A stretch of DNA of 64,000 nt from Octopus vulgaris (Eukaryota): contig OX597819.1 of the NCBI GenBank assembly GCA_951406725.2, forward strand, positions 100,192,001 through 100,256,000, written 5' to 3'. Positions 7,481 through 54,635 of the stretch are shown in pieces. A program made the position numbers and the translations under genes. How positions within the stretch are numbered: position 1 is the first letter of the stretch; every line of letters starts with the position of its first letter. The notes under the pieces are model-generated. The model did no database searches. It was not told the origin of the DNA and saw only the letters and a list, made by a program, of their open reading frames with translations.

Positions 7481-7771
7481 CCTTTCGACTGATTTGGTTC
7501 CAGAGTCCTTACTGCGATTTATTTTTATACTGTTTTGGTACATCATTGATTTTTTTGTTTTTTAAGGCTACAGCCAGCCATTCAGTTGAGACTCACAGCA
7601 CCATCAACAATCATGAATTAGTTAATCAAGTTAATCAATCAATCGATGTTGTTCTCGTACAATGCTTGTGCAAGAAGATTTTTTTAACATACATACATAC
7701 ATACATACATACATACAGATAGAGAGACAGAAAAACAGACACACATTTATATATGTAGTTATATACATACA

Positions 7772-10722
7772 TAAACAACATGGCGTTGGCTTTGCAGTGA
7801 GAAACTCACTACTCTCCTCAATAGAACCACCATCGGGAGGCACTGAGCGTATCCTCTCACTGCGCCTCTCGACTTCTTCTGGCTCAGTACATCTACTCAG
7901 CATCTATTCTCCCACTCTCAACAGCTCAGAGGAGACCAAGGACCAGTTCTACAAAGATCTCAACTGTGTCCTAGAAAATATACCAACGACTGAAAATATC
8001 TACCTTCTAGGGGATTTTAACGCTCGCGTGGGATCTGACCATGATTCGTGGCCCATTTGTGTTTGACACTTTGGTATTGGCAACATGAATGACAATGGTC
8101 AGAGACTACTCGAATTCTGCACATACCACAACCTGTGCATCACAAACACATTCTTCACCAGCAAGCCATCCCACAAGGCATCCTGGAGACATCCAAGATC
8201 TCACCACTGGCATCAGCTGGATCTCATCATTACACGGAGATCCTTTCTGAGTTCCACTCTATTGACCCGCAGTTACCACAGTGCGGATTGTGACACAGAC
8301 CACTCACTAATTAGAAGCAGGGTGAGGATTCTCCCTAAAAAAGTCCATCGCTCCAAGAAAGTGGGCCGACCACGCATCAACACCGCCAGAACCTCGGACC
8401 CTACACTGCGAAAATGTTTTGCTGCTTCTATCAAGGTTGCCCTCAGTAGCTGCCCAACCTCCTCTGCTGAAAGTAGGTGGGACTATATCAGGGAAGCCTT
8501 GTATACGACATCATTGGATACTTTCGGCATGAGAGAAAGGCAAAACCCAGATTGGTTCAATGCTGGGCTCTCAGAGCTGGAGCCAGTTATCGAAGCAAAG
8601 CGTGCAGCTCTGGTGCAATACAAGAGTGACTCTTCTACAAAGTCACTCGAAGAACTCAGAAAGGCACGAAATAAAACCCAACTGACAGCCAGATGCTGTG
8701 CAAATAGGTATTGGCAGGAAATCTGTCAGAGTATCCAGTCAGCTGCTGACAGGGGCGACACCCGTGGGATGTATGCTGGTTTGAAGAAGGCCCTCGGTCC
8801 ATCCGCAACCAAGTCAGCCCCTCTGATATCAACTACTGGAGATCTCATCAGGGATCAAGGCAAGCAAATGGATAGATGGGTGGAGCACTACCAGGATCTC
8901 TACTCACGGGAGACCACATTGTAGCTGAGGCTGCAGTCGAGAGTGTCAAGATCTTGCCAGTCATGTGCGAACTTGACAGTCCGCCATCTATAGCAGAGCT
9001 CACCAAGGCTGTTGACTCCCTAGCAAGAAATAAGGCTCTGGGAAAAGACGGCATCCCCTCAGAGATCATCAAAGCCGGCAAAACACCATCCTGCTTCGGC
9101 ACCTTCATGAGCTTCTGTGTCAGTGCTGGGAAGAGGGTACAGTCCCTCAGGATATGCGGGATGCCAACATCATTACGCTCTACAAAAACAAAGGTGACCG
9201 TGGTGATTGTAACAATTACCGTGGTATATCCCTTCTAAGCACTGTTGGAAAGACCTTTGCCCGCGTTATCCTGGCCAGGCTACAACTACTTGCTTCTCGA
9301 ATCTATCCGGAATCGCAGTGTGGCTTTAGAAGAAGCAGATCAACTATCGATATGATATTCTCCATACGCCAACTTCAGGAGAAGTCCAGAGAGCAGAAAA
9401 TGCCATTATATATGGCCTTCATTGATCTAACAAAGGCTTTTGACTCGGTAAGCAGAACAGGCCTCTTCCTCCTGCTCCAAAAAATCGGATGTCCACCAAA
9501 GCTGCTGAGGATCATCAAGTCTTTCCATGATGACATGCAAGGCACCATACAGCACAACGGTTCAACATCAGCCGCCTTCCAAATAAAAAACGGGGTAAAG
9601 CAAGGCTGTGTCCTCGCTCCTACATTGTTTGGCATCTTCTTCTCACTCTTGCTGTCACATGCCTTTCAGACATCAGATGATGGAGTGTTTCTGCACAGTA
9701 GAAGTGACGGGAAACTGTTCAATCTCTCGCGCCTGCGTGCCAAGACCAAAATCAGAAACGTCCTGATCAAGGAGATGTTATTTGCTGATGATGCCGCTCT
9801 GGTAACACACACAGAAGAAGCCCTCCAAAGGCTCATTAACTGTTTTGAGCAACCATGTAACGACTTTGGCTTAGCTATCAGCCTTAAGAAGACCAACATC
9901 ATGGGCCAGGCTACATCGGACATCCCAAACATACATATTGGAGACCACAGATTACAAGAGGTGGAGAAGTTTACCTATCTGGGCTCTACCGTCACCTACA
10001 ACCTATCCCTTGACGCTGAGCTCAATATACGCATTGGCAAGGCAGCTGCTGCGATGGCCCAACTCTCCAAACGGGCTTGGGACAACAATAAGCTGACCAA
10101 GACCACAAAAATGAAGATCTACCAGGCATGTGTACTCAGCACTCTACTGTATGGAAGCGAGACCTGGACGCTATACACACGCGAAGAGCGTCGCCTAAAC
10201 ATCTTTCACCTGCGCTGCCTCCGAAAAATCCTCCACATCAAATGGCAGAATCATATCCCCAACAAAGATGTCCTCAGGCAAGCAGGAATACCAAGCATGT
10301 TTGCACTCCTCACACAAAGACGTATGAGATGGCTTGGGCATGTTAGCCGTATGAAAGATGGCAGAATCCCCAAGGACATACTCTACGGAGCGCTTGCTAG
10401 GGGTACTAGGTCTGTGGGTAGACCGATCTTGCGTTACAAGGATGTTTGCAAAAGGGATATGAAGGCCTGCAACATCAACATTAGCGGTTGGGAGGCAGTC
10501 GCCGGCAACCGTGGAGAATGGCGACGTACAGTAAAAGAGGGTATACAGAGGAGTGACAGAAAGAGAGAGGAGAAATGGAAAGAAAGGAAGAGACATAAAC
10601 AAGAGACCATGGCACTACAATCAGCCAGGAACAGTCTTCGCTACGTTTGCAGTACCTGCCAGAGGGAGTGTTTGTCCAGGATAGGACTACACAGCCACAG
10701 CAAGAAATGTAACAGGAAATAA
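7772..10722 (+). mobile_element. RTE-clade LINE, 5'-truncated, APE + RT + C-terminal Cys/His motif; one stop (8064-8066) and two frameshifts (~8920, ~9085)
   Basis: GVGFAV, LLGDFNARVG, SWRHPRSHHWHQLDLII, DCDTDH (APE); NYRGISLL, QCGFR, FIDLTKAFD, GVKQGCVLAP, LFADD, FTYLGS (RT); CSTCQRECLSRIGLHSH. Confidence 0.97.
9154..10722 (+). CDS. RTE LINE reverse transcriptase ORF fragment (522 aa)
   Basis: Uninterrupted ORF covering the RT motifs and C-terminus; part of the disrupted ORF above. Confidence 0.85.
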   Translation: MRDANIITLYKNKGDRGDCNNYRGISLLSTVGKTFARVILARLQLLASRIYPESQCGFRRSRSTIDMIFSIRQLQEKSREQKMPLYMAFIDLTKAFDSVSRTGLFLLLQKIGCPPKLLRIIKSFHDDMQGTIQHNGSTSAAFQIKNGVKQGCVLAPTLFGIFFSLLLSHAFQTSDDGVFLHSRSDGKLFNLSRLRAKTKIRNVLIKEMLFADDAALVTHTEEALQRLINCFEQPCNDFGLAISLKKTNIMGQATSDIPNIHIGDHRLQEVEKFTYLGSTVTYNLSLDAELNIRIGKAAAAMAQLSKRAWDNNKLTKTTKMKIYQACVLSTLLYGSETWTLYTREERRLNIFHLRCLRKILHIKWQNHIPNKDVLRQAGIPSMFALLTQRRMRWLGHVSRMKDGRIPKDILYGALARGTRSVGRPILRYKDVCKRDMKACNINISGWEAVAGNRGEWRRTVKEGIQRSDRKREEKWKERKRHKQETMALQSARNSLRYVCSTCQRECLSRIGLHSHSKKCNRK

Positions 10723-10822: not shown

Positions 10823-10826
<4 letters not shown>

Positions 10827-10951
10827 CCGGGTTGATTCTTAACCACATTGTCTCCCATAGCAGAGTAAAATTAATTTATTATAGAAGGATGCCAACTGTT
10901 TCATTCAAGAAATCTTCAAACAGGAGCTTCCTGAAGATTTCTCTTGAATGA
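10823..10951 (-). mobile_element. Decayed copy of the palindromic HHR mini-element (family of 35302 and 47998), in (TA)n
   Basis: cccgggttgattc..ttaaccaca..atagcagagtaaaattaatttattatagaagga and gagcttcCTGAAGAtttctcttgaatga match the 48 kb copy. Confidence 0.8.
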
Positions 10952-12142: not shown

Positions 12143-12183
<41 letters not shown>

Positions 12184-12418
12184 TTATATATGAGGATAAT
12201 ATCGATATTTAAGTGTCGAAATTATCAAGTGGCCAGCATGAAAGAAATACCTTACAAAGGTAAAAAAAAATTTTAACAATTAAAAATGAGGGTGTCTAAA
12301 AGACACCAACATGCCGAAATAGCAGTCGAAACACTGACTATAGTACCACGTTAAATGTTCATATCGCACCATGAGGTAAAGCGGAGGGACAAAACATACA
12401 AGCAAAAATTATTGAATA

Positions 12419-12478
12419 ATTCAAGATCCAAGGATTTCTGGTTCTGCTTTAGATAAGCTTTACCGTCATCAATTGAAT
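12419..12478 (-). ncRNA. Type I hammerhead (U3 variant) in the inverted arm
   Basis: Reverse complement of the motif at 12596. Confidence 0.75.
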
Positions 12479-12595
12479 ATATCAAGGGTACATCAATACA
12501 GATATATATATGCACAGCAAACGATATACTTACATACACGAGCGTCGTACATACATACATATGCACGTATGGACACAGCCAGTTTGAATCGCCCG

Positions 12596-12655
12596 ATTCA
12601 ATTGATGACGGTAAAGCTTATCTAAAGCAGAACCAGAAATCCTTGGATCTTGAAT
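12596..12655 (+). ncRNA. Type I hammerhead (U3 variant)
   Basis: ATTCAA-TTGATGA-c GGT aaa GCTT atcta AAGC aga ACC a-GAAA-TCC tt GGA-TC-TTGAAT; AUC triplet ending at 12649. Confidence 0.78.
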
Positions 12656-13078
12656 TATTCAATAATTTTTGCTTGTATGTTTTGTCCCTCCGCTTTACCT
12701 CATGGTGCGATATGAACATTTAACGTGGTACTATAGTCAGTGTTTCGACTGCTATTTCGGCATGTTGGTGTCTTTTAGACACCCTCATTTTTAATTGTTA
12801 AAAATTTTTTTTACCTTTGTAAGGTATTTCTTTCATGCTGGCCACTTGATAATTTCGACACTTAAATATCGATATTATCCTCATATTTAAATTTATATAA
12901 TTCGTTATTATATTCACTGCGGTGCTTATTTTAACCATATCGTACTTATGCGGTGATTTGGCGGGCGATTCAAACTGGCTGTGTCCATACGTGCATATGT
13001 ATGTATGTACGACGCTCGTATATGTAAGTATATCGTTTGCTGTGCATATATATATCTGTATTGATGTACCCTTGATAT

Positions 13079-13138
13079 ATTCAATTGATGACGGTAAAGC
13101 TTATCTAAAGCAGAACCAGAAATCCTTGGATCTTGAAT
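13079..13138 (+). ncRNA. Type I hammerhead (U3 variant), tandem copy
   Basis: Identical to the 12596 motif; AUC triplet ending at 13132. Confidence 0.78.
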
Positions 13139-13285
13139 TATTCAATAATTTTTGCTTGTATGTTTTGTCCCTCCGCTTTACCTCATGGTGCGATATGAAC
13201 ATTTAACGTGGTACTATAGTCAGTGTTTCGACTGCTATTTCGGCATGTTGGTGTCTTTTAGACACCCTCATTTTTAATTATATAT

Positions 13286-34853: not shown

Positions 34854-34895
34854 ACTATACACGAGACGTCCGCATGCGGACGTCTCGTGTATAGT
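34854..34895. repeat. Perfect 42-bp palindrome
   Basis: actatacacgagacgtccgca|tgcggacgtctcgtgtatagt. Confidence 0.97.
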
Positions 34896-35301: not shown

Positions 35302-35307
<6 letters not shown>

Positions 35308-35500
35308 TTTATAGAAGGAGTTTCTACAGGACTAGAATTGTTTCATTCAAAAGAAATCATCAGGAAGAGCTTCCTGATGATTTCTTTTGAATGAAACAGT
35401 TCTAGTCCTGTAGAAGCTCCTTCTATAAAATAAATTAATTTACTCTGCTATGTATTGAGTACCTTATTTACTGTGGTTAACCCCGACTCAACCCGGGACC

Positions 35501-35503
<3 letters not shown>
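35302..35503 (+). mobile_element. Palindromic HHR mini-element inserted in (TA)n
   Basis: 134-bp near-perfect palindrome 35302-35435 plus a ~68-bp unique tail ending cccgggacctac; (TA)n on both sides. Confidence 0.92.
35367..35419 (+). ncRNA. Type I hammerhead (mirror copy on the minus strand ~35318-35367)
   Basis: GAGCTTC-CTGATGA-tTTC tttt GAAt-GAAA-CAG ttctagtc CTG-TA-GAAGCTC; GUA triplet ending at 35412. Confidence 0.87.
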
Positions 35504-47845: not shown

Positions 47846-47911
47846 GACACTCATAAATATATACATCTCTCCATCTCTCTCTCTCTCTCTCTCTTTCTCT
47901 CTGAAATGAAT

Positions 47912-47997
<86 letters not shown>

Positions 47998-48000
<3 letters not shown>

Positions 48001-48192
48001 GGTCCCGGGTTGATTCGGGGTTAACCACAGTAAATAAGGTACTCAATACATAGCAGAGTAAAATTAATTTATTATATAGAAGGAGCTTCTACAGGACTAG
48101 AACTGTTTCATTCAAGAGAAATCATCAGGAAGCTTCCTGATGATTTCTCTTGAATGAAACAGTTCTAGTCCTGTAGAAGCTCCTTCTATATA

Positions 48193-48198
<6 letters not shown>
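47998..48198 (-). mobile_element. Palindromic HHR mini-element inserted in (TA)n; perfect 132-bp palindrome 48067-48198
   Basis: Centre ggaag|cttcc at 48132/48133; same family as 35302, opposite orientation. Confidence 0.93.
48131..48181 (+). ncRNA. Type I hammerhead (identical mirror copy on the minus strand 48084-48134)
   Basis: AGCTTC-CTGATGA-tTTC tctt GAAt-GAAA-CAG ttctagtc CTG-TA-GAAGCT. Confidence 0.87.
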
Positions 48199-48252
<54 letters not shown>

Positions 48253-48357
48253 ATTCATTTCATTTCATGAAATACATACTTTCATATTTCTTAAATATAA
48301 TTCGTTTATCATATATATACATCATTATATATCTCTTTCTATATATATGTATATACA

Positions 48358-54124: not shown

Positions 54125-54424
54125 CTACATTTAATAGAAGAGGAATTATGTACATTAATTACAATTGACTGATACTTGTCCTCATCTTGTTTGTTGTTAA
54201 CACAACGTTTCGGCTGATACACCCTCCAGCTTTCATCAGGTGTCTTAGGGAAACTTCGAACCTGGGTTCTCATTCCTAACGTATTTTTTGATGTTGTTAT
54301 TATTCAGGTCACTGCCTGGAATCGAACTCGGAATCACTATGCCATATGCCCACGGGTGTAGTGGTTAAGAGCGCGGGCTACTAAACCCAAGATTCCGAGT
54401 TTGATTCTGGGCAGTAACCTGAAT

Positions 54425-54486
<62 letters not shown>

Positions 54487-54635
54487 CAACATCAACAAAT
54501 ACCTTAAGAATGAGAAACCAGGTTCGAAACTTCTCTACGACATTTGATGAAGACTGGAGGGTATATCAGCCGAAACATTGTGTTAACAAACAAGATGAGG
54601 GCAAATATCCGTCAATTGTAAATAATGCAAATAAC
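54125..54635. mobile_element. Head-to-head pair of tRNA-headed elements, each tRNA-like head + (AAT)n + minimal hammerhead + tail
   Basis: Right arm: ggtgtagtggttaagagcgcgggctactaaacccaagattccgagtttgattc. Left arm (minus): gggcatatggcatagtg..attccgagttcgattcc. Arms are reverse complements through caagatgagg.caa.tatc.gtcaattgtaa. Confidence 0.85.
54199..54244 (-). ncRNA. Minimal type I hammerhead
   Basis: Minus strand: GACAC-CTGATGA-aa GCTG gagggtgtat CAGC c-GAAA-C/G-TT-GTGTT; degenerate mirror copy at 54539-54584 (+). Confidence 0.8.

Follow-up and report, generated by a model that had tools for sequence, protein, structure and literature searches.

The 64,000-nt window of Octopus vulgaris DNA analysed here (the whole stretch, to which all unprefixed coordinates refer) contains at 47998-48198 a 201-bp element lying within (TA)n, with a left flank at 47914-47997 and a right flank at 48199-48250. 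A 69-bp tail (47998-48066) adjoins a perfect, spacerless palindrome of 132 bp (48067-48198) centred on gaag/cttc, which is the longest perfect non-microsatellite palindrome in the window; the runner-up, a perfect, spacerless and non-repetitive palindrome at 34854-34895, measures 42 bp. An earlier note, made from the sequence alone, had described a perfect palindrome centred in stem I of a hammerhead ribozyme, a hammerhead consensus on both strands and a unique tail of about 69 bp, and we find all three. Each palindrome strand carries every core motif, reading stem I AGCTTC, CTGATGA, T, stem II, T, GAAA, CAG, an 8-nt loop, CTG, TA and GAAGCT, and stem II consists of 3 bp (TTC/GAA) with a TCTT loop.

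Numbered from the A of AGCTTC as +1 in its parent, a Penelope-like element (PLE) described below, the window element comprises parent pseudo-LTR +137 to +1 in inverted orientation and +1 to +68 in direct orientation, overlapping at AGCT. The tail, on the reverse strand, corresponds to +137 to +69, between two putative start sites of reverse transcription; in the parent, ATAT and then the leader of the open reading frame (ORF) come next. Also on the reverse strand, the inverted arm (48067-48134, +68 to +1) holds a hammerhead at 48134-48084 with its predicted cut between 48090 and 48089. The direct, tail-less arm occupies 48131-48198 on the forward strand (+1 to +68), with a hammerhead at 48131-48181 and a GUA triplet at 48173-48175, after which (48175) cleavage is predicted. 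Common to both arms is the self-complementary 4-bp AGCT at 48131-48134, the A of which is the probable transcription start of the parent.

The earlier note counted three copies in the window, and all three were located, although the other two are not intact. The copy at 35302-35503 (reverse strand) is 95% identical to the first and belongs to another subfamily with TTTT in loop II; it is imperfect, with two mismatches in its arms and a 2-nt insertion at the centre, where an extra G precedes +1. The copy at 10823-10951 (forward strand, start approximate) is a degenerate member of the N7 = A subfamily, with many small deletions, a right arm cut short, 78% identity over 109 nt and no intact hammerhead. 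A LINE with endonuclease- and RT-like frames (7635-10722), RTE-like by its motifs, ends about 100 bp before it. Elsewhere in the window, an older second family at 54146-54634 likewise faces outward, with two arms of about 158 bp that are 85% alike, each bearing a hammerhead-like core with a long stem II; relatives occur at three other genomic loci (L134, L176, L187). Between (TA)n runs at 12176-13279, segments of 303 and 318 bp form near-perfect inverted copies in a tandem/inverted order; they are possibly another PLE-type insertion or an assembly fold-back.

Across the genome (2.80 Gb, 227 contigs), a 30-letter core pattern gave 841+853 exact matches against none for the reversed control, and so is not a product of chance. 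Exact patterns recovered at least 1,694 cores of the N7 = U type, at least 8,042 arms, at least 4,113 arms bearing the tail (a ratio of roughly 2 to 1) and at least 645 perfect AGCT centres; reversed patterns gave zero for every count, and all of these counts are lower bounds. A DNA search, in which the best 40 of 815 candidate places were scored, placed at the top eight copies identical across 201 bp, so that at least eight identical copies exist on different contigs. Flanks of (TA)4 or more bound both ends in 51 of 57 short palindromes surveyed below, and TA lies on both sides in the 27 copies displayed among the 30 best. Copy number and flanks, together with the parent, thus bear out the earlier view of a young, (TA)n-targeted, retroelement-derived and hammerhead-bearing sequence. 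An assembly artefact was considered and ruled out by unique flanks and by variable joints in contigs of two independent runs (X15 and X16).

Core matches in the genome form outward-facing pairs spaced by 0 to 7 kb, and this two-armed layout extends from insertions of about 150 bp to insertions of more than 8 kb. Long arm pairs enclose 5'-truncated RT and endonuclease frames, and a protein search recovered copies with open frames of up to 722 codons. The autonomous PLE sharing the tail, which had been postulated, exists as a full-length copy (L081) with, in order, an upstream pseudo-LTR, arm, tail, ATAT, a 43-nt leader, an ORF of 713 aa, a 3' UTR, arm, tail and (TA)16, spanning 4,919 bases from +1 to the downstream tail. 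Its 3' UTR of about 2.4 kb (L081:5414-7870) is microsatellite-rich and largely TA/CA-like. The length of this region varies between copies, and the family may therefore spread simple repeats besides targeting them. Pseudo-LTRs arising from a partial tandem were seen in three copies (L081, L082 and L098), and there are 106 tail-leader junctions, many of them within arrays. Inverted 5'-truncated copies with a tail at one end are also present, the tail being 67-69 bp rather than 30-40 bp. In one insertion (L034:3401-5724), a different RT-bearing element with PLE-like motifs is nested between arms of this palindromic family. The family additionally forms retrozyme-like tandem arrays at C2:64.628-64.632 Mb (L196-L208), C5:37.48 Mb and C8:91.48 Mb, with periods of 277, 333 and 271 bp, respectively, and a central inversion. 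The unit of the C2 array is -37 to +240, containing TATA box, hammerhead, tail, leader and ORF start, and this array has a tail at one end only.

The 713-aa product (P0004) is a single ORF in which an RT with YRDD precedes a C-terminal GIY-YIG-type domain with VY..YIG. By eye, its RWR and DKT correspond to the RWK-type motif and the DKG-to-DKT change of the Hydra clade; a CxCX5C linker is present, CxxC and CxH motifs flank conserved E and N, there is no CCHH, and the RT blocks resemble the printed Hydra alignment. A Pfam search recognized no domain in P0004 itself, so the clade was set from motifs; a relative (P0044) scores above the Pfam GIY-YIG cut-off. P0004 has 486 relatives, the best 120 of which share 38-55% identity. 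The general tendency of Hydra-clade elements towards lengths below 3 kb does not extend to this parent, which reaches 4.9 kb because of its microsatellite-rich 3' UTR. Neptune, our first label for the parent clade, was dropped as the motifs fit the definition of the Hydra clade instead. Judged by its sequence, then, the parent is a young Hydra-clade PLE, and it is near certain that the window element is a stub derived from it. The earlier suggestion of a minimal retroelement in its own right gives way to the short end of a continuum of parent insertions.

The hammerhead in these arms has a complete type I core (CUGANGA, GAAA and UH) and three stems, with 6 bp in stem I, 3 bp plus U-U in stem II and 4 bp in stem III, and a fold of -7.3 kcal/mol. 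Rfam yielded no hammerhead match at gathering score over the window, nor at E<=10 over 47900-48300, and the isolated half-element folds weakly (z -0.19). Among 99 long arms, variants at a frequency of 5% or more spare all 38 core and stem positions but fall at 3 of the 13 free ones (p=0.014), these three being N7, loop II and loop III; for comparison, 8 of 40 positions vary in upstream DNA and 7 of 68 in the tail. No compensatory pairs were seen in these arms, which vary little along their entire length. By this pattern of variation, the ribozyme appears to be conserved in the parent. A rival reading, in which the element is a MITE or fold-back DNA transposon with long terminal inverted repeats and an incidental hammerhead, could draw on the inverted ends around variable internal DNA and on the TA target. 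We regard it as having practically no chance of being right: the internal DNA codes for RT and endonuclease rather than transposase, the parent ORF itself refutes it, copies are 5'-truncated, the ends are asymmetric owing to the tail, so that fixed symmetric terminal repeats are absent, and variation avoids the ribozyme core and stems. A DNA transposon lacking core conservation, the outcome that the earlier note held would count against its proposal, was accordingly not what we found.

How the stubs arise can be read from their joints. We surveyed 90 of the first 94 tail-arm rows, chosen by their tail from the first 46 Mb of contig C1; the four omitted were three long arms and one perfect palindrome, and the counts include a few mis-parsed positions (L132, L146, L181) and one local duplicate (L141/L142). 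Long arms make up 26 of these 90 tail arms, arms of short head-to-head elements 57, and solo or other arms 7. The 64 that are not long show a wall at +1: 26 end exactly there, none between -24 and -1, and the rest at +2 to +34. Tail-less arms, 56 of which could be parsed, start at +1 in 15 cases and pass it in two (to -1 and -3), and in one element (L047) both arms extend 10-15 nt beyond +1. Perfect joining at AGCT accounts for 9 of the 57 short palindromes. Overall, the junctions consist of overlaps of 1-4 nt (35/56), blunt joints (4/56) and inserts (17/56). That short palindromes arose afterwards, by deletion within long two-armed insertions, is suggested by the existence of such long copies and by microhomology at the junctions, yet deletion would neither halt at +1 on both arms nor add a G in solo copies. 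The wall, with no tail arm ending between -24 and -1, largely refutes this reading, to which we give very little credence.

The base preceding +1 is informative in this respect. In the parent, a TATAAAT begins 29 nt before +1, which is a normal spacing from TATA box to transcription start. Solo copies joined to (TA)n at +1 are preceded by G at 44, C at 13, T at 11 and A at 9 of 77 distinct loci (counted by hand from 100 listed rows of 121 matches), although the parent has T at this position in 76 of 77 arms and the (TA)n target contains no G. A lone G outnumbers a lone C by 34 to 10 (p=0.0002). Full-length L1 copies bear the trace of a copied cap as an additional G at their 5' junction. Additionally, at four loci (L191, L194, L195 and L210), arms that begin at +1 or +2, with the G, are joined to ends inside the ORF, joints that we read as template jumps after run-off. 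The wall at +1 and the extra G together point to run-off of reverse transcriptase at the start of a capped RNA, with start site and cap both deduced from DNA copies. Non-templated addition by the RT could be another source of the G excess, C being the second commonest base (13/77).

The relationship between the two arms bears on whether one was copied from the other. In the 56 short elements, the longer arm is the tail arm in 24, the tail-less arm in 20 and neither in 12; as the tail-less arm reaches further 5' in those 20, neither arm simply copies the other. None of the 57 short palindromes carries a tail on both arms, and the genome-wide excess of arms over tail arms, roughly 2 to 1, likewise fits one tail per element. 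Both arms could be examined in 18 ORF-bearing copies: eight carry the tail on the long arm, seven on the short inverted arm and one (L031) on each arm, and the script scored two as tail-less, one of which (L084) shows a tail on its inverted arm on inspection. Within an element, the arms agree at the sites that distinguish subfamilies (N7 34/34, loop II 41/41, loop III 41/44), and both must therefore come from one RNA or one source locus. Single-G deletions at +46 or +49 affect 17 of 118 short arms, mostly the tail-less arm, and 2 of 77 long arms; they were set aside, as G49 lies away from the cut and hairpins may have been sequenced with errors.

Arm agreement fits equally well with fold-back of a single cDNA, or with RNA self-priming on an antisense template, in which the second arm copies the first. 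Self-priming of this kind is already in print, as Arkhipova 2013 (PMC3846280) reads head-to-head junction palindromes in this way, and four of our 56 junctions (L113, L127, L161 and L168), of AG-GAAG-CT type, fit a 2-bp hairpin closing a loop of 4 nt. The perfect class, however, would require a loop of 2 nt, and the extra G at +1 is the signature of a template in sense orientation. Furthermore, it is the tail-less arm that exceeds the other in 20 of 56 short elements, and by kilobases in 7 ORF-bearing copies, while the tail sits on the other arm alone. A copy of one arm cannot exceed its template and lack or gain the tail, which favours two primings over self-priming, and we consider fold-back unlikely.

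The at least 645 perfect centres and at least eight identical copies on different contigs could instead reflect a non-autonomous 201-bp retroelement, transcribed and copied whole from master copies. Against this, centres vary widely, with only 9 of 57 short palindromes perfect, and palindromes have been made separately by each of several parent subfamilies. The unit also lacks the TATA region and any leader or ORF sequence, and its RNA would be a tight hairpin. Identity among copies is accounted for by a young parent and a fixed run-off point. The same observations lend no support to the idea of a self-sufficient minimal element, and we judge copying from master units to be distinctly improbable.

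We think it probable, instead, that the two pseudo-LTR front ends of which each stub consists were joined head-to-head in one insertion event that involved two reverse transcriptions and run-off at the capped RNA start. The identity of both arms with the parent pseudo-LTR is directly visible, as is the same layout in insertions of up to more than 8 kb that hold pieces of the RT/endonuclease ORF. The remaining steps are proposed as follows. Transcription of the parent would begin at the A of AGCT, 29 nt past the first T of TATAAAT. By analogy with a green-anole PLE in vitro, the protein would nick both (TA)n strands and prime from each end, once near +68 and once at +137, both of which are TA-like in the RNA; Frangieh 2024 (PMC11167929) showed a PLE protein to nick and extend the two strands of its target and to initiate at two internal positions flanking the tail. 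Where priming falls on the 5' pseudo-LTR of the RNA, the cDNAs would run off after 68 and 137 nt, often gaining a C opposite the cap, and their 3' ends would be joined through 1-4 nt of microhomology, most often at AGCT. Against this account stand the copy with a tail on both arms (L031), L047 and the two arms that pass +1, and the fact that the in vitro model is a Poseidon rather than a Hydra element.

Without promoter or leader, such a product is predicted to be dead on arrival, and read-through RNA would form a 64-bp hairpin in which the ribozyme is blocked. The earlier note had proposed two mutually exclusive folds of the transcript. Hairpin and ribozyme do exclude each other, but the palindrome hairpin is computed at -108 kcal/mol (z -22) against -7 kcal/mol for the ribozyme fold, and a riboswitch-like choice between the two was ruled out on these energies. 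Transcription always reaches the antisense arm first, and in partial transcripts too the hairpin is predicted to prevail; because it would form as the sense arm emerges, the ribozyme should be silent on both strands.

In the parent RNA, by contrast, the ribozyme is likely to be active, possibly as a dimer, with the RNA mostly uncut when it is copied. Loop III holds a palindrome (CTAG or ACTAGT), through which two copies are computed to cofold at -25.2 kcal/mol, against -7.6 kcal/mol for one; this is in line with dimeric PLE hammerheads described previously (PMC4209133). Arms broken or changed at the cut site (+46) number 59, classed by hand as 27 that join the other arm through 6-7 nt of stem I homology, 11 that end otherwise and 21 with substitutions or indels. 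At the control position +43, ends make up 3 of 15 arms (11 versus 3 ends, p=0.03), the control at +44 being confounded by the TA target. Events in which both arms end near the cut site are not independent evidence, as symmetric ends occur elsewhere too. At most, these numbers weakly suggest that cut RNA was the template for fewer than 1% of arms.

Editing of the palindrome RNA by ADAR, which the earlier note had raised, finds one weak hint. In X5 contigs, whose origin from RNA is a guess, T>C appears at 48087 in 132 of 1,195 and at 48098 in 126 of 635, equivalent to A48G and A37G on the ribozyme strand; in three other runs it stays at or below 0.1% at both positions. None of 231 genomic arms that match the test pattern has A37G or A48G, and one divergent genomic arm (L183) carries A37G. 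Edited palindromic repeats would not be new, since Porath 2017 (PMC5625713), which reports heavy editing in octopus, describes an edited palindromic repeat in frog and edited Penelope in lizard.

These stubs matter because the origin of tandem and inverted PLE ends is named as an open question by Craig et al. 2021 (PMC8557442). If twin priming and run-off at a fixed point are correct, thousands of relatives record how PLEs insert; with a family this young and abundant, junction statistics may reveal where transcription starts, whether the RNA is capped, which two sites are primed, how ends are joined and where the template is switched. Were the arm ends at +46 to prove genuine, they would be evidence of hammerhead cleavage of a PLE in vivo, which Frangieh 2024 (PMC11167929) did not find in RNA reads. 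Some 2,500 short hairpins (a rough figure, scaling 57/90 to 4,113) could add to the high dsRNA and editing load reported for the octopus (PMC5625713). Our broadest reading treats the stubs as a fossil record of two primings on two sides of a break, from one capped sense RNA with run-off at its cap, in which about 1% of arms come from RNA cut by the hammerhead in vivo and through which the genome has been seeded with perfect hairpins subject to A-to-I editing; we offer this whole only tentatively, at somewhat under even chances. From the model follow precise predictions for the mapping of 5' ends and for a kind of in vitro assay already in use.

Twin priming is familiar from L1, in which two target strands are primed, the cDNAs are joined head-to-head by microhomology and a G derives from the cap. 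L1, however, primes on poly(A) and inverts different segments of its RNA; in the octopus PLE both cDNAs cover the same segment, which is why the product is a palindrome. Clade, hammerhead, (TA)n targeting, inverted arm and tail are already in print. No account of PLE products that are palindromic and body-less, or of a cap mark or twin priming in PLEs, came to light in a search drawing largely on open-access papers. In particular, short palindromic products are absent from the clade section and tables of Craig et al. 2021 (PMC8557442), and we came across no treatment of the 5' junction or of inversion in the portions of PMC11167929 used here.

The closest relatives of the parent are Hydra-clade PLEs such as Hydra-1_Obim and Penelope-1_HM (Craig et al. 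2021, PMC8557442), with which it shares RT motifs, endonuclease, (TA)n and the hammerhead type ctgatgat..tgaa. It differs from Hydra-1_Obim in family and hammerhead sequence, and its loop III has 8 nt, with a stem II of 3 bp, against loops III of 1-3 nt in the Hydra elements given there. The green-anole Poseidon PAc (PMC11167929) is similar in its two RT starts bounding the tail, AT-rich target and uncut RNA as main template; in the octopus, by comparison, a tail of 67-69 bp precedes the start codon, both RT starts are TA-like, and the evidence is genomic. Non-LTR retrozymes (Cervera and de la Pena, bioRxiv 10.64898/2026.07.22.740005) are likewise short, non-coding PLE derivatives with a type I hammerhead, and the palindromic family also has tandem arrays, of 271-333 bp, as they do, whereas the 201-bp unit is arranged head to head rather than head-to-tail and lacks promoter and leader. 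Finally, Penelope elements of Adineta vaga and Drosophila virilis (PMC3846280) share with this family an inverted pLTR, junction palindromes, a tail on one arm and a TATA box. Their palindromes, as reported there, measure 18-38 bp and occur in long, rare copies, whereas in the octopus the majority product is body-less and its features speak more for two primings on a capped RNA of sense orientation.
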